This document shows positions 1,088 to 64,000 of a DNA stretch of 64,000 nucleotides, one piece after another. Location: assembly GCA_002269645.1 (NCBI GenBank), contig NIVC01000434.1, positions 540,199 through 604,198 on the forward strand, given 5' to 3'. This stretch comes from Macrostomum lignano. Taxonomy: Eukaryota. The first letter of the stretch is position 1. Each line of letters opens with the position of its first letter. The translations under genes and the position numbers were made by a program. The notes under the pieces are model-generated. The model saw nothing but the letters and a program-made list of their open reading frames with translations, was not told the DNA's origin and did not search any database.

Positions 1088-2590
1088 ACGCAAAGATATT
1101 ATGGTGGGCGTCTTGCGCGCACGCGCTCGCAGAAGAGACTAGAAGGACAGTTTGTGGCAGATTGTGGGGTCAGGTTAATGGCTTGAAGGTCAGACTCAAG
1201 CGTGGCGGTCAGCGTGGCGGTCCGGCCTTGGCCCCGTCAGAGACGCTCGGTTGGCTGATGTAGCAAGGTTAGCGCCAGCGGGTTTTGCTCCCCTCTGCCG
1301 TAGCTGCGGAGGCAGTGGCCGACGAGCATTAGCCGGCGCCGCTGCAGAGTGGCACTGAGCTGAGGCACACGGGCTCTCGCCATCAGCTGGTCCGTCGGCA
1401 GCCGCTCTGGGTAATGGATGCCAAGGGCGAACCGCAGCAGCGATCGGTAGGCAGCGTCCAGGGCTCGGGACCTCGAGTCGGTCATTGGCACTGCCTCCAG
1501 TCCGTACAGGAAGATTGGCTCTACGGCAGCGCGGAACAGGCGCATCTTCACGTCGTCGTTGGCAGCTGAGCTGAAGACCTCCCTGAGGAGATGAGCCGCG
1601 CGCCAGGCCTGTGACCTCCGGTCGGCGATGATGGAGTCAGGGCTCATCACGAGGGAGCCCAGGTACCGGAAGTCTCTGCAGGCTGAAATGACTTGTCCAT
1701 CTGGTAGGGTCAGGATTGGTGCTGCATCGGTGCCCATGTGCAGCACTTCCGTCTTGCGTGCGTTGATTTGCAGTCCGACTCGGGCGCTCTCCTCATAGAG
1801 TCTCGAGAGCGCTCTCTGGGCGGCAGTCGGACTGCGGCACAGCAGGGCAATGTCGTCGGCGTATGCGAGGGCGGGCAGAGGGGCAGCACCGCGGCGGGAG
1901 CTCCGGCGTGACGCCAGCAAGTAGCTGTCCTCCTCTGTGAGGCTTCGGCGCAGCACGTAGTCGACGACAAGGATGAAGAGCAGTGGAGCCAACGTGTCAT
2001 CTTGGAGGACTCCAGAGCTGGTGCAGAAGTCCTCAGTTGGGCCATCGCTGGTTTGGACAAAGGCTTTGCTGTTGTTGTAGAGGTCCATCACTGCAACGAT
2101 AAGAGCCGGAGGGACGCCATAGTGTTTGAGCAGCCACGCGATCGCGCGCCGGCACACTGAGTCAAAAGCTTTGCGGAAGTCCACAAAGACAATTGACACA
2201 GCTCTTTGGTGAGTTTTACAGGCCTCGACGACTGCTCGAAGGGCTGCAATCTGCTCTGTTGTCGAGCGACCGGGCCTGAAGCCACTTTGGAGGCTCAGGA
2301 TCATTTGGTTGAGGCCAGGCAGCAGCCGATTACGCAGTATAGCATTGAGCAGCTTAGCCAGAGTGCATTCCAGAGCGATGCCGCGTTGGTTGTCCAGACT
2401 GGTGGATGCGCCCTTCTTGGGGATGGAGACGATCTTAGAGGTGCGCCAGCTGAAAAGATAGAAAAGCAAAAACAATGCATTATAAAGTTTGTTTTTTTTT
2501 GAGAAAAAAGGTGCAAAATTTCTGTATGTTCTGTGTTAACATTAACAGATTAATAACAACTATATGTATTATTTAATAACTTATTTTAAA
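472..2590 (-). mobile_element. Degraded, truncated non-autonomous hAT MITE (same family as 8155-9020 and 9085-9967), split by the LINE
   Basis: 472 begins cagtattaggcac (decayed TIR cagtgttgggcac). 472-1049 and 2447-~2590 are the reverse complement of contiguous MITE interior (ccatctttttagcaaaacacagagg in the 9085 copy). The far TIR is not seen. Confidence 0.75.
1050..2446 (-). mobile_element. 5'-truncated non-LTR retrotransposon (RTE-like LINE) with reverse transcriptase and (TA)n tail
   Basis: ORF 1237-2475 has RT motifs QSGFRPGRST, FVDFRKAFDSV, GVLQDDTLAP (QGD changed to QDD), YADD and FRYLGS. TGA at 1237-1239 looks premature: the frame continues RGQGRTATL to TAA at 1099-1101, followed by about 15 nt and the (TA)n tail at 1049-1084. 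CAGCT occurs at both junctions (1045-1049, 2447-2451). Confidence 0.92.
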
Positions 2591-10400: not shown

Positions 10401-13400
10401 GTTAGCAAATACATGCAAATGAATGAGGGAATAGTCATAGACTTAGTCAATAGTCGCTCATCAAATAGCAGAAGCTAATGCATCAAGCTCATACTTCATT
10501 GTTTGGCCTCCAATTTGCGCTTTTTCTTGGCCAGTTTGTTCTCTGCCTTATCCAGATTCTTCCTCTCCACCTGCAGGGCTAGCATCTTCCTCTGGTATTT
10601 GCTTAGCAAGGCATTTGCCTTTTCCGATTCCAATTCAAGCAGCCACTTCTTTTCCCAAATCTCTATCACCGCATCAACATCTTTTGTATTGCTTGTACTA
10701 GCTGCCTCTTAAGCAAGTTGCTCCTTGTGCAGCTCCTTTTTCTGCATGCACCTTTGCCAAGCAGCTTGATTTTGTCGGGCATTGAATCCTTCGGCAATGT
10801 AATGGTCACCAAAAACAAAGGACTCACATGTGAGAGCAGTGGACTTCAGAAACCCATTGAGAAGCAGCCAAGCGTCCACAGTCAATGTATCTAATGAATT
10901 GTGCTTTCGCATTAGCAGATCTGCCAGGCTGGAAAATGGAATGCACGTTCAGCTTCAGAATTTCCATGTGGTATGCTTAGAGCAGCAGAGGCAAGTCGCC
11001 ACACTGTTGGAAATCTAAACTCCTCTGTTGACACCTTTAAACTCCCTACAATGAGCCAAAAGTCTAGCACAGTGGAATTGTCATCAAGAATGCTGATCTC
11101 ATTGGTTGCAATGGCCAGTACCAGCTGCCTCCATTCTCTATCAATTGCTGTGATGCTGTTTTCAGGAAATCTCAATGCTTTGGCCATCTTTGTTGCAAAT
11201 TTGGATGACAGGTTCTCAACTCTGCTTGGGTCCAAAAACTGTGCCTGGCATAGTGTTGCATTGCATCTGCTAGCGGTAAGTGGGATTGCAGGTAAGTTGC
11301 AAGTGCCATGTAAAATTGCTTTGCTTGAACAAAGCACTGTTTCTGGAGTCTCTCTGGGCATTGCTGAAGCAAGGACTTGGTCTTCTCACCAACAAACATT
11401 TCGTAGTCAGAGGCACAGTGCTCAAAATCAATTTGCATGGTTGTCAAGTGAGATGCATTGGCACTCACATAGTCAAGCTGAACAAAGCAGCTCAGAAGTT
11501 CCCTAAAGAGCTGACGCACATTGGCATACATTAAGTGAATTAGGACCGTTCTCTGTTGAAAATGCGTCTCAAACTTGTCAAGAATTGGCAAGACAGACTG
11601 AAGAAACAGAAGGTCAAACTCTACTTCCTTGTTCTGCAGCAGTTCACAAATCTACTGAACCTGCTTCTTCTCAAGGCTGCCAGTAGGCTCTGAGTTGTTG
11701 CACTTTAGAAAAAACTCTCGCAACCCAGGTAATTGCTCCACTAGTCTGTTAACTACAGGCAGCAGCTGGACCCAGCAAGTCTCTACACCATGGAGAAAGC
11801 AGTGACACTGGAGGTCCAGCAAGTCCTGTACATGCTCGTAGTGAGACTACCGGGATGTGTACATAAAGTACGAGTAGACTAAGTCAGCCAGACTCTCGCA
11901 CTCACTCCCCAGCTTGTCACAAGCGCGTTGGACGCCATTGGACACATGATGTAGAATGCATGTCGTAAGCTCCTGTAGCTGAGGCGCATACTTCCTGATA
12001 AGGACATGAAAGCCCTTGTTGCGCCCAACCATGACTGATGGTCTATCTGACATGATCAAGACGCAATTGAGCAGAGAGATTCCAAGCTCGGCACATGCAT
12101 CAACCACGGCTGTCTCAAGCATTGCAGCTCTTCTATCCCAAACTTAAACAGTCTTGATTGGCACAGCCAGAAGTTGACGATGCTTGATGGAAATGAAGGT
12201 GATGACAATCACAAGAAACTTCCTGGCACTCATGACTTCATTTGATTCATCAATAGACAAACTAAAGAAGCCACTGCCAGCATTTAGGTCTTGAACAATC
12301 TCCTCTCATAGCACAGGTGCGATTGCATTGGTCACTAAGTAGTATGTCTTGTTGCGCTTACAGCTAAACTTGGCAGCAATTTGACTGTCTGGGAACATTG
12401 ACTTGTACACATTGTGGTCAGACTTGGAAAATGACTGGTGGTGTTCTACCACAGACAGTGCATGGTGCAGCTCCGCCTCCATCACTTGCAAATCCAACTT
12501 GTCAGACTTGCATGTGTCACTACTAGCTCGAGCTGCTGGCTTGAAAAATGAGTCAATTGGCTTTGCTGCTGCTTGTTTGATTCTATGCCCAAATCCCACT
12601 CTGAGCTTGTACTTCTCATTGTGCTTCTTAGACTTTGCATGGTTTTCGATGGCACCAAACCTAGCTGAGCCAATGTGCAGAGTTGTAGAGCACAGCGTGC
12701 AGATCGCGCCATGACAGTCCTTGGTATTTGGTTGCAGCCAAATCTTGCACTTCTGATCATTGACCACGCGACTGTGCCAGGCTTCAATAAACTTTGTAGC
12801 TTGCTGCTTTGAGAGAGACATGCTGCAAATGTAAAAGTGAAGTGAGAAAATACCTACAGAATACATACCTACCTAGTTTTGCCTCCAAAAAAGGAGATAA
12901 AATAACAGTTAACAAAATCATTCTGGTATAACTCTTTTTCAAAACCAATGCAATGATGCATTTAGACAACATATGCATTAGTCAATGTAATGACAGTTAA
13001 AATAAAAAAGCCTGATAAGGCTTTCAAACACAAAATGGGATCGCTAAACTGGAGTAACAAAAAATGTAGAAATGCACAAATTCATTAAAATAATGCAACT
13101 GCGTTAAAAATGCAGCCTGTCACACCACTGATGCGCAACCTTGGGAATCACTTGGCCATTTCTATTGGCAACACACACATGTAAGTCACTATTGGCTGAG
13201 AGTAGTCACTGACTACTATTCTATCCTATAGCGACTTACATGTATGTTGCCAATAGAAATGGCCGAGTGAATCCCTAGGTTGCACCCAAGCATGTATATA
13301 TTGATAGACATGTTATAATATTGCATATTAATTAATATACTTCAGATTATTCTTCTTAAGTTCATGAAGCTCAATGGACTGTTTAATGCACTATTTTAGA

Positions 13401-41031: not shown

Positions 41032-56702
<15,671 letters not shown>

Positions 56703-57135: not shown

Positions 57136-57406
57136 AGTAGTATATAAAAAGACGCTTCTAGACCCAGAGCACTTTTTTAATGACCGTTTTAAGGGTCTAG
57201 AGGGGGGACACGGGGGGTAAATAAAAAAACACATCTAAACACCATTAATACATCTAATCACCCATAATCACCCCTAACAATAAAAATCACTTCCAAACAC
57301 TTCCAAACACTCCCCAACACCCCCCTCGCGTCCCCCCTCTTAAGACCTTACAAACGGCCATTAAAATAAGGTCTGATCTAGAAGCGTCTTTTTCTATACT
57401 ACTACT
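57136..57406. repeat. 270-bp foldback with AGTAGT...ACTACT ends
   Basis: Left arm agtagtatataaaaagacgcttctaga...ggggggacacgggggg (57136-~57217) is inverted relative to the right arm cccccctcgcgtcccccc...tctagaagcgtctttttctatactactact (~57320-57406). Confidence 0.88.
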
Positions 57407-57460
57407 CTATAACCCCTTGCCCGCGCCGCAGGCGCGAAGGGTCTTTTTCTGTTACTAAAA

Positions 57461-57775
57461 ATGACCCGAGTTTACACCTTTTCTGTTAGTGATACTTTTG
57501 AGACTGTTGCTAAAAATGCAGAGATAATAAAACAACATATTTTGAATGGAATAATTGATGAAGTTTATTTAAAATATGACGACAAGCACGACCTAAAACT
57601 TTATCCATTAGAGCTAGATGAGATGTTTGATTTAGAACAAGAGGGTGAGTTAATATTTCAACTTGGAGATTATTTAAATTCGGATGATTGGGAGGTTAGA
57701 TCAACAGATTCCGAATCAACAAATAGTTCATATGAAACCAGCGATTCAGAGAATGAAAGTGAAATTTTTATGTGA
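57461..57775 (+). CDS. Hypothetical 104-aa viral protein with acidic C-terminus
   Basis: ATG preceded by aaaa as in neighbouring viral ORFs; no recognisable domain. Confidence 0.6.
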   Translation: MTRVYTFSVSDTFETVAKNAEIIKQHILNGIIDEVYLKYDDKHDLKLYPLELDEMFDLEQEGELIFQLGDYLNSDDWEVRSTDSESTNSSYETSDSENESEIFM

Positions 57776-57791
57776 AAAAAATATTTAAAAA

Positions 57792-58016
57792 ATGAACTAT
57801 TATTCTATAACAGAAACGACATTTATTGTGAAAAATATATATAAAAAAATGAAGGTAAACTATTCCTACATCGGAAATGTTCCAATTAATGAACTTAATG
57901 AAAATTTAAGTTTGATAACAGTTGAACAAATGTCAATAATAATATTAGTAACAATTATAGTAATAATATTGTTTTTGTTTGTTATAAAAAATTTACTACC
58001 ATGTTGTCTCAAGTAA
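57792..58016 (+). CDS. Hypothetical small membrane protein
   Basis: C-terminal hydrophobic stretch IIILVTIIVIILFLFVI followed by KNLLPCCLK. Confidence 0.5.
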   Translation: MNYYSITETTFIVKNIYKKMKVNYSYIGNVPINELNENLSLITVEQMSIIILVTIIVIILFLFVIKNLLPCCLK

Positions 58017-58026
58017 TTGTTCGAAC

Positions 58027-59175
58027 TTAGTTCGCTGATATTAGTTGGTTCTCATAAAACGAACCCAATATTTCTTCACCGTCCTTATCAGCAATTATAT
58101 AGGTTGTAGGATTGGTATTTAAAACTTTACTGATAGTAAATTTCTCACTTATCTTCCAATATCCTTTTCTTCCTTTTTCAAACTTATCTTTCCATTTATA
58201 GATATAAACAGAATCACCAACCTTAAAAGATTTCTTTTTATTTTTTTCAAATTTTCCAAAAGTAACTTTAACGTTTTCAGGATTGTTATAAGCTTGTTGA
58301 GGAGTCATCTTTATAGCTGAATGATATGAATTGTTATAATCTTTCACTACGTCTGGTAATATTTTTACCCACTTTTGGTTACCATTAAGACTAAACTGAA
58401 ACCATAATTTCTTACCTAAAGTTCGATTAAATCTTTCTATTAATGCGTTTTTACTCTCTCCATAAATAGAATAAATTTTATTAATATACTCCCCATTCGC
58501 GTCTTTTTTCCTTTCTTTTCCTTTTTCAAAATGATACAATTTATACATATGAGGATTGTAAAATTCTTTTCCTTCATCAACACACAATCTTTCGCTTTTT
58601 TCTCCAAGACTTCTAAAAGCAGCAGCAACCTCCTCTCCCTTTTTGGATTTTAAAGGAACAGCCCACGCGTATCGAGTAAAACCATCTAATATGGTTAAGA
58701 TATATTTATATCCTCTTTCGTTCGGCATCGACATTAAATCAGCATACCAAATTTCATTCTTTTTGAAGTTCATGATTTTTCTATAAAATTTAGGTTTTCG
58801 ATATTCTTTATGAAGAATCTTTGCCTCATCAGAACTTAACCCACCACCACTTAATAATAAACACTCGACACAATTATTTCCATGTTGATTATAATTAATT
58901 CCCAAACCAAATTTAACTTTAGACTGCAAAATCTTTTTAACCATCCACCTAGTTAATCTTTGCCCTACCGATAATCCCTGCAAGTTATCTAATCCTTGAA
59001 TCATTTTTTGATCGGCTTCATGTTTTAATCTTAATGCTTCCTCGGGCGGGTTCTTGTCAGCATCTCTATATGCTAAGTCGTGATAGTATGCTAACCAATC
59101 AATCCCATTTATTGGAATTGAATCAGATTTTGGAGTATTGTCAGGATTTAATCTCAAATCTAAGCGAGTGCCGGG
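58027..59175 (-). CDS. 3' exon: PLA2 C-terminal part fused to Polinton-type DDE integrase
   Basis: PGTRL...PINGIDWLAYYHDLAY...HEAD...KVKFGLG (PLA2 with HD dyad), then with no stop GGGL...LHKEYRK...WYADL...YILTILDGFTRYAWAVPLKSK...VDEGKEF...IERFNRTL...NNSYHSAIKMTP...FKVGDSV...LGSFYENQL. Confidence 0.93.
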   Translation of the reverse strand, partial: PGTRLDLRLNPDNTPKSDSIPINGIDWLAYYHDLAYRDADKNPPEEALRLKHEADQKMIQGLDNLQGLSVGQRLTRWMVKKILQSKVKFGLGINYNQHGNNCVECLLLSGGGLSSDEAKILHKEYRKPKFYRKIMNFKKNEIWYADLMSMPNERGYKYILTILDGFTRYAWAVPLKSKKGEEVAAAFRSLGEKSERLCVDEGKEFYNPHMYKLYHFEKGKERKKDANGEYINKIYSIYGESKNALIERFNRTLGKKLWFQFSLNGNQKWVKILPDVVKDYNNSYHSAIKMTPQQAYNNPENVKVTFGKFEKNKKKSFKVGDSVYIYKWKDKFEKGRKGYWKISEKFTISKVLNTNPTTYIIADKDGEEILGSFYENQLISAN

Positions 59176-59478
59176 TAGTTTACCCTCAATCTTTCGAAAG
59201 AGGCTGGAGCACACCTTAAGCGGCGATAATTACCGCCCATCTCCGTCTGCTCTCTGAACCTTCTCCTTATATTTAAAATACTTAGGAGCTTGGCTGCGCA
59301 TTGCCACCATGTCTTCAAGCTTTTTACCTTTGGGAAGAGGAGTTACCTCTGTTCCTTCAAAAGATTTCTCAATTGAAGTGGTACTTGAAGCTGTATGACG
59401 GGTTTCACGCAATTTGGAGATGTCGCCACAAATAGTGACTAGCAAGGACATTGCCTTCCTCACTCAGGCCACGGGATA
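59176..59478 (-). ncRNA. Group I intron, IC1-like, 303 nt
   Basis: Sense-strand elements: P1 exon CAGGU with IGS GCCUG (U-G at the splice site); P AAAUUGCGUGAAA (59403-59415); Q AAUGCGCAGC (59293-59302); R UCAGAGAGCA (59248-59257); S AAGGUGUGCUCC (59206-59217). P7 GAGCA/UGCUC with bulged A and G-C guanosine site; P3 AUCUCC/GGAGAU; P4 UGCGUG/UGCGCA; P5a CUUCAAG/CUUGAAG with an A-rich bulge; P5b with GAAA loop; P6a CUCCU/AGGAG; P8 GGCGGU/AUCGCC; P9 CCUC/GAGG; P9.0 AG/CU. Confidence 0.93.
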
Positions 59479-60213
59479 ACCTGTGAAGTTCATTGATGGT
59501 AGGTGTAGCTCACCCGTATACCTCCCAGTAGTAAATATTGGTGGTAAGCTTGTTAATCCTTTTTGAACATCTAAAAATCCTCCTTCAAATACTAATTGAT
59601 CGTTCCGAAGGAACGCGGACTTCGCCGATCGAACCTTTGGTTCGCATGCGTCGCATGATTGCTCATTTTTTATAGCCTTAAAAATACATGATAGCACCAA
59701 TTGTTTTGCAAATTCTTCAATTGTTGGTTGTTTAACAAATTTAGTTTTATTATCAATAGCAGCTAAGTATCTTTTATTTGTCCAATGTTCAGACTTTTTC
59801 ATATGATCTTCGTCTTTGTAATTAAATGAAGAAGCAGGAATAAAATGATCAATATGTAAAGCACCACCATAGTCTTTTGGAACATAATAATGTTTTGTGA
59901 AATTTAACCAATCAATAAAGAATTCAATTGAGCAACCAAGGTAATCAATAGTATGATTATTTTTTCGAGCATTATTTGATTTTAATAGTTGATTTATTCT
60001 ATTTCGTGAGGTGATAATAAGTTTGTAATTTTCATCAGTGTGATATTTATTTTTTATATATTCTTTATTGTTTTTATTCCACAGTTTTGATATAACTTTC
60101 TCACAAGATCGACAATCATTTCTAAATTTTTTTGAATCATTTCTCCAAAAATAAAATTCTTTTGTCATCGGTTTTTCTTGTTTACACTTAGTACAAATCT
60201 TATTAGTTTCCAT
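59479..60213 (-). CDS. 5' exon: HNH endonuclease (giant-virus type) fused to the PLA2 N-terminus
   Basis: CTKC...CRSC zinc pair, YLGCSIEFFIDWL, LHIDHFIPASSF, HWTN...DNKTK, then CDAC...EGGFLDVQK...GELHLPSMNFTG. If unspliced it stops at TGA 59464-59466 (249 aa). Confidence 0.88.
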
Positions 60214-60240
60214 TTTATAAAAAATAAATTTAACAATTAA

Positions 60241-60903
60241 TTAAACACCAGTATGTCCAGCAGCTTTCGCAGCAGCTAAAACAAGTTTTCGTGGTGTTTT
60301 AAATCCATCACCAACAGCTAGTTTGTTATTTATAGAATTAACAATCCTTTTATACAAGCTGGTATTTTTAACAGCTCCTCCTAACTCATCATAAAAAATT
60401 CTAGCACTTATTAATTCATCCCTAGTATATAAATCAGGGTTAAATTTTACCCTAGGGTTCATAACAATATTATATGCTCCACCCAATTCTCTATATAGTT
60501 CATTTCGATTTTTATCAACTCCACCAATTCGATAATTATTATTACCTAAATCTGTCGCAGCAATACTAGCTGGTACTCTTGGATATTGTTCCCGATCGCC
60601 CCGCTCTGCACGTCTAATCTCTGCAATTCTCAATTGTGCTTGATCAACATCATAAGCAGGCGGCTCATCCAAAATTTCATCCTCTTTTGGCTCAGTATTT
60701 TTAGCAATTTTTTCCAGAAGATCTTTATCTGTTTTTTCTAGTTCACTAATTTTCCCAGTAATAGGATTAACAAAAGGAGCAGCAAATCTTTCACGCTAAT
60801 TGTATCCTAACTTTCTTTTTTGTAAATTTCTAACAAAATCAGAATATCTTTGCTTCTCTTTATAAATCGCTAACTCTCCATCAACGTCCATAAATTGACT
60901 CAT
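60241..60903 (-). pseudogene. Polinton accessory protein (about 220 aa) with one in-frame TAG at 60796-60798
   Basis: ATG at 60903 is in frame with ORF 60241-60672. MSQFMDVDGELAIYKEKQRYSDFVRNLQKRKLGYN*RERFAAPFVNPIT resembles the coiled-coil/KPIT-type ORFs I associate with Polintons; function unknown. Confidence 0.6.
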
Positions 60904-60937
60904 TTTTTAACATAAAAAACTTTTTTAACTTAAAAAA

Positions 60938-62402
60938 ATGGCTGAAACAAAAACTATGTGGAGTGATAAATTTCATTTCAAAAAGCACCGACAGTATATT
61001 AATGAGGTCAGAGCAAGAGATTTAAATTATACCCTACCAACAAGTGATAATTCAAATAACTTTACTACTGGAACGGTAACTTTTGACATCGGCGCAACCA
61101 ACACTATATTGGATATGAAAAATGCGTTTTTCCGCGTTAGATGGTTGTATACTAGAAATGATGGAACTGCTCTTGCAGCCGGAGATATCGCAGATCGATC
61201 CGGAATAATAATAGAAAATGATTGGTTTTATAAATGTTTTTCCCAAGCTCAACTAACTGTTAATGGTGCTGAGGTTGAGACATCATCAAACCCCGCAGAG
61301 ATTAATGGAGTTTTGAAACATTTAAATTATACTTATTTATCAAAACAAGTTGGTGATAATGTTGGGTGGATGCCGGATAAAGGTAACGGCAAGCAGTAGT
61401 TTTCCCTAATGTACAAAACGCAGCCGGTGCAGATACTGCAGCGCTAATTGTTTACCTTAATACAAACATAGTTCCAGTTGTAACCACTATGACTAATACA
61501 AAAGATATTAATACTGGTTTTATAGATCGTCAGAATAAATTCCCAGTCGTTTTAACCACAGCAACAGCATATGAGCAGGACTTTTCAATCTTTCCACTAT
61601 TTGGGTTTTTCTCACCAAATCGGGTATGGAAAGGATTAAAATTTGGGATACAGTTGCAAATATCTGGTGGATATCAGCCTAGGATACTTTATGGAACCTC
61701 AATTTCAACCGATATAGCAGTTCGTATAGATTCAATTCAATTAGTCGTACCAACTATTGAGGTAACAGCCCCACTTTTAAAACACATCGATAATCAGTTA
61801 ACGCATGATCAGGAAATATTTTATTTGAATCGTCGACATTTTATGCGAACCATTAATAATAACCAGGATTCATTCCAGTGGCAAATACTGACATCAAAAC
61901 GTCGGTGAGATATATTTTTGTTTGTTTAAGATAACAAATAGAAGGAGTAAAAGAGCAAATGGGGATTTATATTGGCTTCAATCCGGCTGCCATAGCAGAA
62001 CAAGCAGCCACCGCAACAGACAATGCGGCTGCAGCTATTAACGAGTTTAATGTTTCAGAATATCCGCCTGCAGGTTGATGATCAATATTATCCGGTTAAA
62101 GACCCCCTAAATTTAAAATAGCAAATAATAATGTTAATGATTTTATAAAATATTATCAAGATTATGCCAAAAATGAAGCATATGCCGTCCCTCAGTACAC
62201 ACCCACAGAGTTTCTAAACATTCATCCAGTGGTTGTTTATGATCTAACGCACAGAAAGAAAACGTAGCCAATATTGGACTTAATTATATGTTAGAGATTA
62301 ATAAACCGGTAATCAGGCACTTGACGCCCACGTATTGTTTCTAGAGGAATATATGTCAATTGCTAAGCTGATGGCACGATTGTTCGGGACGCACCATTGT
62401 AA
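60938..62402 (+). pseudogene. Major capsid protein (double jelly-roll, hexon-like), frameshifted
   Basis: TFDI...LDMKNAFFRV...CFSQAQLTVNGAEVE, FSIFPLFGFF...GLKFGIQL, IDSIQLVVPTIE, VRYIFVCL, QVDDQYYP and PVVVYDLT. Frameshifts near 61390, 61900 and later; real decay and read errors cannot be separated here. Confidence 0.8.
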
Positions 62403-62451
62403 AATGAGGCAGGTCTCGACCGTCGCACCTATTTAAATTATTTCTTTAAAA

Positions 62452-63354
62452 ATGGTAAAGGCAAAACACGATAAAATATTTCCAAATGATCCTTTTCTTT
62501 GTTTAGTAATCGGAGATCAGGTAAAGGAAAAACACATTTGTTTACGATTTATTAACAACAGATGGAATGTTAGACTATAATAATTTAATAATTTATACTA
62601 ATAAACCTAGAATAAAATATTATGAATTTCTTAAACATGGATTAAAACAAATTAAAAAAAGATCTTGTTTAGAATGTTAAGAGCATATGAGCAATATGAG
62701 GATGATGACGAACCGCGATTTAATCTAGCAGACATTGAGGATTTATGTAAAACAATGGCACAACAGCCAGAAAACATCACCGATCCCGAAGGGCGGACTT
62801 CGTCCGATCGCCCCAACTGTTTAGAGTATCAACCGATTAGCCTATGATCAAATTCCAAAACATGATAAAACACTAATTATTTTTGATGATTGTATTAATG
62901 ACGGTGATCAAGAATTGCAAAAGGAAATTTTTGTTAGTGGTAGAGGAGATGGAATTGGAGCTTTTATCTTACTCAATCCTTTAGAGAATTAGAATCGATT
63001 ATAAAAAAGAATGCAAGTTGTTGTGTAATGTTTGATTTAGATAATTATGATTTACAAAATATTCACGCTAGATTTAATCCCGGATTGGATGCAAAACCAT
63101 TTAAAAGTATGTGTAAAAAAATTTGGGATGATAGCCAATACAAACATATTTATATCAATCCGAGGTTAGAAAGGAAACATAGAATTTTAACAAATTTGAT
63201 AAAAGAAGATAATGAGGAAGAAGAGACATATATATCGGACGGAGTCCGCGACCGGTTCGATTTTCCCACTATAAAAATGACTACAAATTTAAATACTATA
63301 AAACAATTGGTAGATCGAACTAATTCAAATTTAGTACAACATTACAGTTTATAA
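62452..63354 (+). pseudogene. A32/FtsK-like packaging ATPase, frameshifted
   Basis: PFLCLVIG then (after a shift) RSGKGKTHL, Walker A near 62515-62540; LIIFDDC Walker B near 62877-62892; FVSGR and (shifted) LTQSF...IIKKNA. Confidence 0.88.
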
Positions 63355-64000
63355 TGACAACCAGCGAGCAACGGATTCAATTGCGCGATCCATTACAACT
63401 TGATCAAAGCCTAAGTTATCAAATAGGTTTAATACTATTTTCGGTTTTCAACATGCCTCAATTAATTAATGCAACAAATAATCAATTTAGATATTCTAAA
63501 GATTCCGGAGCCAATTGGACAACATTTAGCGTTAACCCAGGAGCGTATAGCTATACTGATTTGAATGCTTATATAGAAGGAGAATTAACAACTAATGGTG
63601 ATTGGGTAGCAGGAGCAATTGTTATAGGTGTTGATTTACCGTCTGGCAGATTCACACTATCACTAGGATCCGGATATCAGGTTGATTTCACAATTGCAAA
63701 TTCACTCAGAACCATACTTGGATTTAATTCCCGAATAGTTACCACATCAAGCACCGGATACAGTGGAAATATGAGGGGGAGTAAATACAATTAATATAAC
63801 AACCGACATTTCAAACGGTGGTTATATAACAGATAATAATGGAGTTTTGGTTCAACGTGGAATTATTTATTCAATCCCATTTCTTGCTGTTCCAATTGGA
63901 GAGAAAATGATTGTATCACCTCAAACCCCAATATATTACCCATTAAATCAATATAATGTTCATCAATTTATATTAGGATTGTAGATGAAAGCGATAGATT
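63354..64000 (+). CDS. Minor capsid (penton-like single jelly-roll) protein, one frameshift near 63775, runs off the window
   Basis: RIQLRDPLQL, NNQFRY, PGAYSYTDLN, LRTILGF, then in a shifted frame INITTDI...IIYSIPF...PQTPIYYPL; ATG overlaps the ATPase stop. Confidence 0.78.

Follow-up and report, generated by a model that had tools for sequence, protein, structure and literature searches.

A group I intron in the phospholipase A2-integrase gene of a Macrostomum lignano Polinton and its probable link to an Eco47II-like nuclease

What keeps a small group I intron at a single codon boundary of a protein-coding gene in an animal nuclear genome? The question is raised by a locus in a 64,000-nucleotide stretch of Macrostomum lignano DNA (assembly GCA_002269645.1, contig NIVC01000434.1, positions 540,199 to 604,198 of the forward strand), which is referred to here as the window and in whose coordinates positions are given. 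On its minus strand, two segments share one open frame, 60213-59479 (245 codons) and 59175-58027 (382 codons plus stop), with 303 nt of intervening sequence between them. The locus is the phospholipase A2 (PLA2)-integrase gene of a multi-copy Polinton in the animal nuclear genome; it is split by a group I intron, and a separate nuclease gene lies just upstream. The answer that we consider probable is that the intron hides a five-base nuclease target, GGNCC, of which the remainder of the element has been purged.

A group I intron at a fixed codon boundary

The intervening stretch (59176-59478, minus strand) lies between the glycine and proline codons of the PLA2 calcium loop and matches the Rfam group I family RF00028 at 64.2 bits against a gathering threshold of 50 (E 3.4e-16; siblings, 64-89 bits), in agreement with the ribozyme-type intron proposed in a preliminary description of the locus. 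The match is detected with a 381-nt query and was missed with a 7.5-kb query. Among the copies compared (30 of 52 genomic matches were fetched), the boundaries are identical in 30/30 and the length is 301-303 nt. The junction proposed earlier is likewise correct: intronless alleles, both in the same genome and in databases (P0001, P0004, P0008, P0138), read straight through it. A spliceosomal intron using GT...AG near the junctions was rejected, as it would be out of frame.

In the Rfam alignment the internal guide sequence (P1; 59461-59469, minus strand) has a U-G wobble at the 5' splice site, and P7 (59207-59252, minus strand; 59252-59248 with 59211-59207) keeps the guanosine-binding G-C pair. 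P3 and P7 are paired in 56/56 cores, with P4, P6a and P9 mostly paired, and between the window's family of elements (family A) and the second family described below (family B) three of the five pairs of P7 and a single pair each of P3 and P4 are altered on both sides. Plain folding of the intron is weak (z -1.98). The window intron is ORF-less in that the nuclease domain is absent and the P2.1 loop is a short, five-base one (59425-59439); a 77-codon open frame runs across the ribozyme core (59230-59463, minus strand) and resembles the end of the nuclease ORF encoded in the introns of relatives (63% identity with the P0121 tail over 54 aa). Scans of IMG/VR and JGI returned either nothing or distant relatives only, with no intron at E 0.01 in the 10 of 57 loci scanned, and in outside relatives the intron is visible only as translated intron sequence at protein N-termini (P0002, P0042, P0007, P0144).

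A second group I intron was observed with another catalytic core (33 bits), shared P2.1 and P5 parts and the same 5' site (L146:2745-3078; also in L145, L147, L155, L164, L168, L176, L191 and L192). No 3' boundary restoring Gly-Pro in frame was found for it, so the spliced loop would be altered.

The HNH and PLA2-integrase genes

The preliminary description had joined both segments into a 627-aa HNH-PLA2-integrase polyprotein, with splicing acting as a switch between an endonuclease-only product and one with entry and integration functions. Its coordinates and frame hold, as do its statements that translation of unspliced RNA stops four codons into the intervening stretch and that the frame runs from the PLA2 half into the integrase without a stop. 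The polyprotein as a normal product does not: 27 of the 30 copies keep two genes, the PLA2-integrase reading frame having its own in-frame ATG (59666 in the window) and a product of 424-445 aa, and the HNH frame of intact copies ends about 106 nt ahead of the splice site. Sibling elements had been proposed as a check for the same fusion, which occurs in just three copies (the window, L015 and L021). Each falls short by one base, every time at a different point of a GC-rich hairpin repeat (59600-59660 in the window). The repeat varies in length, its other variants preserve the frame, and siblings 99-100% identical to the window copy have the extra base and two genes.

In the 30-copy alignment and in read contigs, the shortfall that joins the two frames of the window copy maps near 59,624. 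Reads had been proposed as a test of the linkers; in contigs built from reads, the extra base is carried by all of the depth in the three runs with cover (depth with the extra base 9.45/9.45, 7.65/7.65 and 294.7/294.7; the fourth run had no cover here); these contigs pool all copies, and an assembly error is therefore not separable from a deletion specific to the window copy.

The HNH-type endonuclease gene (59585-60213, minus strand) encodes 209 aa in near-identical siblings and 187-210 aa across intact copies, and overlaps the start of the PLA2 gene by about 82 nt. Its product matches an endonuclease VII family of PHROG (E 1e-11), and the motif residues H123, N146 and N155, together with K158, are invariant across 73 aligned sequences. 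A single-sequence fold model was unusable (pLDDT 35.5), and the profile match in the PDB is limited to the Hpy99I zinc finger (E 0.014). The integrase motif tested is absent from the best 150 HNH relatives. HNH occurs in 3/3 of the family-A alleles without an intron, and many copies with an intron have another nuclease in its slot; there is accordingly no switch between endonuclease and entry functions acting on a single polyprotein. HNH-driven collaborative homing was downgraded as a candidate, since HNH is found in intronless alleles as well.

Exon 1 of the PLA2-integrase gene (59479-59666, minus strand) starts at its own ATG and is out of frame in the window copy only through the one-base shortfall. 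Exon 2 (58027-59175, minus strand) supplies the rest of a parvovirus-type PLA2 (HD near 59080) and a DDE integrase (D, D and E near 58749, 58581 and 58440). By itself it reaches 32 bits against the Pfam family rve, just under the cut-off of 32.6 (E 1.6e-7), and E 0.022 against Phospholip_A2_4, and the relative P0001 matches foamy-virus integrase structures at E 2e-9. The union of PLA2 and integrase, described earlier as unusual, is common: both PF08398 and PF00665 are present in 68 of the 120 homologues listed (of 458), and no listed homologue is longer than 497 aa although the search extended to 669 aa. Fusion of PLA2 to integrase is thus characteristic of the family, with HNH as a neighbouring gene. 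What stands of the splicing-gated product is that production of the PLA2-integrase fusion would depend on splicing; HNH lies outside the protein. The preliminary description made no mention of the terminal A of the intron or of a connection between its insertion site and a GGNCC-type nuclease.

Intron and nuclease states in two Polinton families

A genome scan with RF00028 gave 28 stronger matches, all in family B and all at the same codon boundary. The family-B intron is 863-895 nt long where measured, contains a 228-aa ORF in the P2.1 loop and ends in G in 28/28 copies. Together the two families bring the interrupted gene to more than 100 copies in this genome. Family-A copies have one of two genes in the slot upstream of exon 1, HNH or a free-standing version of the family-B intronic nuclease (67% identical), and among those with the nuclease 28/28 that could be scored carry an intron (top 30 of 102 matches, two of them without both exons).

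Intronless alleles make up 7 of 117 matches in a protein search and were recovered as 26 pattern matches against 0 for a control pattern; a first, short pattern had produced 7 chance matches in non-coding frames, and the longer pattern and the protein search were used in its place. Intronless alleles differ from each other at synonymous positions near the junction. Databases hold pairs of intron-bearing and intronless relatives (P0007/P0008 and P0002/P0138). The tails of 10 of the 15 database nuclease homologues read through intron-like sequence, and the composite of intron and nuclease therefore exists in other samples.

An Eco47II-like nuclease

The intronic nuclease of family B matches the Pfam family RE_Eco47II (PF09553) at 30.1 bits against a cut-off of 25.9. 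Its structural model (pLDDT 78) is confident over about 165 residues, contains no added DNA-binding domain and has the PD-(D/E)XK fold with its catalytic residues, of which D and E-x-K are kept over 16 homologues. The best fold match is EcoO109I (Z 9.9, rmsd 4.4, 177 aligned residues), and the nuclease gene has a dN/dS of 0.32. The sister-copy nuclease probably cuts GGNCC, a specificity assigned from its family and from the avoidance described below. In one study, Eco47II is associated with GGNCC, worded 'without certainty' (PMC10305163).

The closest viral relatives of the nuclease adjoin C5 methylases in large-virus contigs. No cognate methylase was found among the element ORFs scanned, and none of the 12 genome matches to the C5 methylase family PF00145 falls on an element contig that was examined; the genome-wide search covered C5 methylases and not N4/N6 types. 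The large-virus loci bearing the nuclease gave no Rfam match. As separate observations on these large-virus contigs (L123-L132), a DNA methylase gene is adjacent to the Eco47II-like nuclease in both of those inspected, and several are mildly GGNCC-poor.

Avoidance of GGNCC

By the genetic code Gly-Pro always spells GGNCC and the intron sits between these two codons, so that it splits a GGNCC site. The rest of the element is nearly devoid of this word. Five near-complete elements contain 0, 0, 0, 1 and 5 occurrences against 12.9, 10.5, 8.0, 10.7 and 11.5 expected, the first being a 17.8-kb element with 0 against 12.9; in the element with five, all lie within an 800-nt stretch that is absent from siblings (a non-homologous insert). 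The host flanks of the same elements contain 37, with 35.6 expected. The Polinton part of the window (57136-64000) contains 0, where a maximal-order estimate predicts 3.3 and dinucleotide composition 8.8. Among 256 gapped words GGNCC alone is at zero, the next lowest ratio being 0.55, and synonymous shuffling reached zero in 0/300 and 4/300 cases. All four middle bases are missing, in both families and over whole elements. Across 93 overlapping, related intron-bearing loci there are 2 GGNCC in 362 kb.

The proteins show a corresponding deficit: outside the PLA2 loop, the 49 closest database relatives have 6 Gly-Pro where 30.5 would be expected, and the next 71 have 32 where the expectation is 40. 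Three other Polinton-like stretches of the genome are undepleted (7/8.7, 9/8.8 and 7/8.7, observed over expected; two include untrimmed flanks). As to the two sites in the pooled loci (L052:1484 and L057:1484), they represent one position, in the nuclease ORF region of decayed family-B copies and beside the codon for the catalytic Asp.

A model for the intron and the nuclease

What was observed directly (the intron and its site, the allele states, the family and placement of the nuclease and the near-absence of GGNCC) is best accommodated, and we think probably explained, by a methylase-free nuclease with a short site, in which the site has been purged from the element, a ribozyme masks the one occurrence that is unavoidable, and the pair drives homing or competition among Polintons. 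The nuclease would retain GGNCC cutting without a methylase partner, and the lineage would be protected through loss of its own GGNCC sites. Since the Gly-Pro of the PLA2 calcium loop needs GGNCC, the ribozyme would split the site in DNA, to be rejoined only in RNA. In intronless relatives the junction would be almost the sole site, so that a five-base cutter could behave as a site-specific homing enzyme; an empty allele, once cut, would either be repaired from an intron-bearing copy, which spreads the intron, or be destroyed as a rival. The window copy, as the ORF-less form with HNH in the slot, would be immune and could be mobilised in trans. Splicing would gate the PLA2-integrase protein (about 445 aa) and not HNH, and the host might escape damage if expression were confined to a replicative phase, which is a guess.

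A broader proposition hangs, in our judgement, in the balance: that this is methylase-free restriction in an animal DNA virus lineage, with the site, including Gly-Pro, erased from a genome of 15-18 kb, the intron serving as an immunity factor, a short-site cutter turned into homing enzyme and weapon, and an active group I ribozyme operating in a protein-coding animal nuclear transcript.

Several points weigh against the model. Host DNA is undepleted (GGNCC 90 against 87), and with no methylase a short-site cutter should harm the host nucleus if its action is not restricted to a certain time or place. Intronless alleles, too, have few GGNCC sites outside the junction (1 in 37.7 kb aligned; 5 against 10.7; 5 against 6.7), and copies with HNH in the slot and no nuclease also have no GGNCC; avoidance therefore tracks lineage and not the gene. 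An unrelated viral contig from IMG/VR (L066, a distant PLA2-integrase element), in which no intron was detected, has 0 GGNCC against 4.0 expected. The specificity of the nuclease rests on family assignment and site avoidance, with both cleavage and splicing being predictions, and within that assignment the free-standing nuclease scores 23.8 bits, under the Pfam cut-off of 25.9, and the fold match to EcoO109I is at 14% identity. The A-ending introns described below have no matching change in P7. An intron identity of 82-88% between families, set against a match at only 24/69 four-fold sites of exon 2, suggests, in support of the model, that the intron was transferred between them, an argument weakened by the fact that RNA structure itself conserves introns. 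With only 3 intronless family-A alleles, absence of the nuclease there is not significant. Lastly, relatedness and mosaicism among the copies, together with some overlap between loci, make the pooled counts non-independent, and the real sample is two families.

Alternatives to the model

The alternative that survives best concerns splicing and is not exclusive of the other models. The last base of the intron is A in the window and in 22 of the 30 copies (42 of 55 in a wider set), and G in 8/30; decay of a single copy as the cause of the terminal A was rejected on the count of 22/30. The A-ending introns could be splicing-dead, in which case their copies would be non-autonomous and the intron would spread at the DNA level only, a possibility that we take seriously while leaning against it. 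Terminal G is near-universal and P7 retains its guanosine-binding pair; homing needs no splicing, and the G-ending copies could supply integrase. On the other side, the A-ending form is the majority and is found with five different exon-2 starts, and 19 of 22 such copies keep an open exon 2 with a dN/dS of 0.10, equal to that of G-ending copies, a value that cannot show A-ending copies to be functional because the copies are mosaic and recombine. Moreover, the A-ending intron ND5-717 of hexacoral mitochondria splices in vivo, with more than 70% staying unspliced, according to two reports (PMC8146996, PMC6545197). Read contigs of four runs, whose origin as RNA is guessed, contained no joint skipping 59176-59478; the search is blind to rare forms, as known intronless DNA alleles gave none in the deepest run either, contigs drop such forms and cover of the intron could stem from DNA, and its outcome bears on splicing in neither direction.

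A second alternative places the selective pressure outside the Polinton: a co-infecting large DNA virus with GGNCC restriction-modification would have selected both site loss and the intron, leaving the Polinton nuclease as a captured passenger or an anti-virus weapon. The C5 methylases beside the closest viral relatives of the nuclease fit this proposal, as does avoidance in copies that lack the nuclease gene. We nonetheless find it unlikely, since other Polinton-like stretches in the same host are undepleted, the nuclease keeps D and E-x-K over its 16 homologues under a dN/dS well below one, the nuclease gene is within or immediately next to the intron interrupting its presumed target, and no such helper virus was identified.

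Long recognition sites are the rule among homing endonucleases, and the nuclease could have evolved a long target centred on the junction, the loss of GGNCC being the relic of a less specific stage. The problem of host toxicity would then disappear. Synonymous variation around the junction in intronless alleles was also counted in favour. It is a quite improbable reading all the same, given that all four middle bases are missing over whole elements of both families, that the folded domain of about 165 aa comes without an extra DNA-binding domain, and that a relic should have eroded between families whose synonymous sites are saturated. The polyprotein with its splicing toggle, for which the frame is open in the window assembly copy and two others, is very improbable in view of the two-gene arrangement of the remaining copies, including the nearly identical siblings, the three separate places of the fusions, the extra base in the contigs over 59,624, the length of the listed homologues, the HNH relatives without the tested integrase motif, and the presence of HNH in intronless alleles and its replacement elsewhere.

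Comparison with known systems

Introns of RF00028 of about 310-380 nt occur in a small integrating DNA virus group, the protist polinton-like viruses (PMC12220804); those are reportedly restricted to one rhizarian, one chlorophyte and one cryptophyte, in a short gene before the capsid gene and with no linked nuclease, whereas the present intron lies in an animal genome, interrupts the PLA2 loop and is accompanied by a nuclease and a site purge. In Bodo saltans virus (PMC5871332), parental nuclease-bearing and ORF-less introns occupy essential genes, the intron masks the target, and interference with co-infecting relatives has been proposed; such interference has been shown for the intron nuclease gp210 of phage PhiPA3 (PMC11620839). 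Those enzymes are HNH or GIY-YIG homing enzymes, while the one considered here is homologous to restriction enzymes and presumably recognises five bases, a site lost element-wide. Collaborative homing in phages, as with F-CphI and the psbA intron (PMC3984707), also pairs a free-standing nuclease with an ORF-less intron at the presumed target, and a composite form is known there too; in the present case both states coexist in one animal genome and in two Polinton families, and cleavage is presumed.

Nuclear group I introns have been stated to occur only in rRNA genes of eukaryotic microorganisms (PMC3679873); the present intron shares their fold and nuclear location and differs in interrupting a protein-coding gene of an integrated animal element. 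The terminal A in place of G recalls hexacoral ND5-717 (PMC8146996, PMC6545197), which is mitochondrial, obligatory and fixed, whereas A-ending, G-ending and intronless alleles coexist here. A parvovirus-type PLA2 and a retroviral-type integrase in an animal Polinton are shared with adintoviruses (PMC8502044), whose PLA2X has a pX-like domain at its end; in the present gene the integrase comes after PLA2, and a weak Adeno_PX match falls in a different ORF. Eco47II-family type II restriction-modification systems, large-virus copies included, share the nuclease family and fold and differ in that no methylase was found in the Polintons, which are apparently protected by site loss and the intron.

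The full texts surveyed contained no group I intron in an animal nuclear genome or animal Polinton and no site-purge arrangement; subscription papers and supplements, notably Tables S11-S12 of PMC12220804, lay outside this survey. The accessible parts of PMC10748475, PMC11131425, PMC11071296 and PMC2441816 held nothing on such introns.

If the GGNCC model is true, a restriction enzyme would have a route to a homing enzyme that requires no longer recognition site, and an intron would be retained for hiding a codon pair. Free-standing, intron-internal and nuclease-free states in one animal genome make the proposed path to mobile introns directly studiable, and natural A- and G-ending versions of one ribozyme make it possible to test cleanly how the terminal-G rule comes to be broken. 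The purging of sites is sensible only if the elements meet as replicating DNA, and so bears on whether animal Polintons act as viruses.

The element and its chromosomal setting

The left end of the Polinton (57136-57403) begins with AGTAGTA and forms a 268-nt terminal inverted-repeat hairpin. Homology between siblings ends at 57136, and the host flanks beyond differ between copies. Only this terminus is present in the window copy, since the contig ends at 64000. Upstream of the nuclease slot lies a conserved ORF with no assigned function (60241-60906, minus strand; one in-frame stop in the window copy), followed on the plus strand by capsid-like, A32 packaging ATPase and minor-capsid-like genes (60938-64000), which are frameshifted in the window copy and have longer frames and Pox_A32 matches in siblings.

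Assignment to the Polintons draws on the retroviral-type integrase, on a protein-primed family B polymerase (PF03175, 66.9 bits in the sibling L210; the window contig ends before that region) and on an A32-like packaging ATPase (PF04665, above cut-off in siblings). A double jelly-roll capsid protein (PF21738) is above cut-off in family B; its 493-aa family-A counterpart has no Pfam capsid match, and the family-A capsid labels follow position and size. The element ORFs scanned gave no Pfam match to an adenovirus-type cysteine protease. The 17.8-kb family-B element, on contig C2696, has both ends, its terminal inverted repeats beginning with AG, and a target-site duplication of 6 bp. Contigs C67 and C506 bear Wnt genes as well as intron copies; the host is therefore an animal and the copies are chromosomal.

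In both families the element termini are long imperfect hairpins bordered by AGTAGTA and its complement (57136-57403 in the window; L205, 7922-8020). Family B has a primase-D5 helicase gene and two neighbouring long ORFs, one with an endonuclease VII domain, that resemble a split polymerase (L205:1025-6651; L202:2359-5262). A similar ORF pair was seen in the intronless family-A element on C1051, other family-A copies having a single polymerase of 1,160-1,210 aa.

Most element ORFs are preceded by a T-rich run and AAAATG (for example at 60213, 60938 and 59666 in the window), which may be a shared promoter or translation signal. These A/T-rich gene starts raised the idea of cytoplasmic transcription by a helper virus; the accessible part of PMC11296320 offered no promoter comparison. 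Short GC-rich hairpin repeats of frame-keeping length recur in coding overlaps and intron loops (59600-59660, about 62790 and about 63238 in the window; L042, about 1686-1715), and are possibly a tiny mobile palindromic element.

Elsewhere in the window, a reverse-transcriptase-like ORF (1240-2535, minus strand) and DNA-transposase-like gene fragments (10915-12872, minus strand) were labelled by inspection. Exons of a host C2H2 zinc-finger gene lie at 52188-56330 (plus strand), the last of them about 800 nt short of the element; the gene presumably resembles PRDM14, and an Atlas search gave generic C2H2 matches only.

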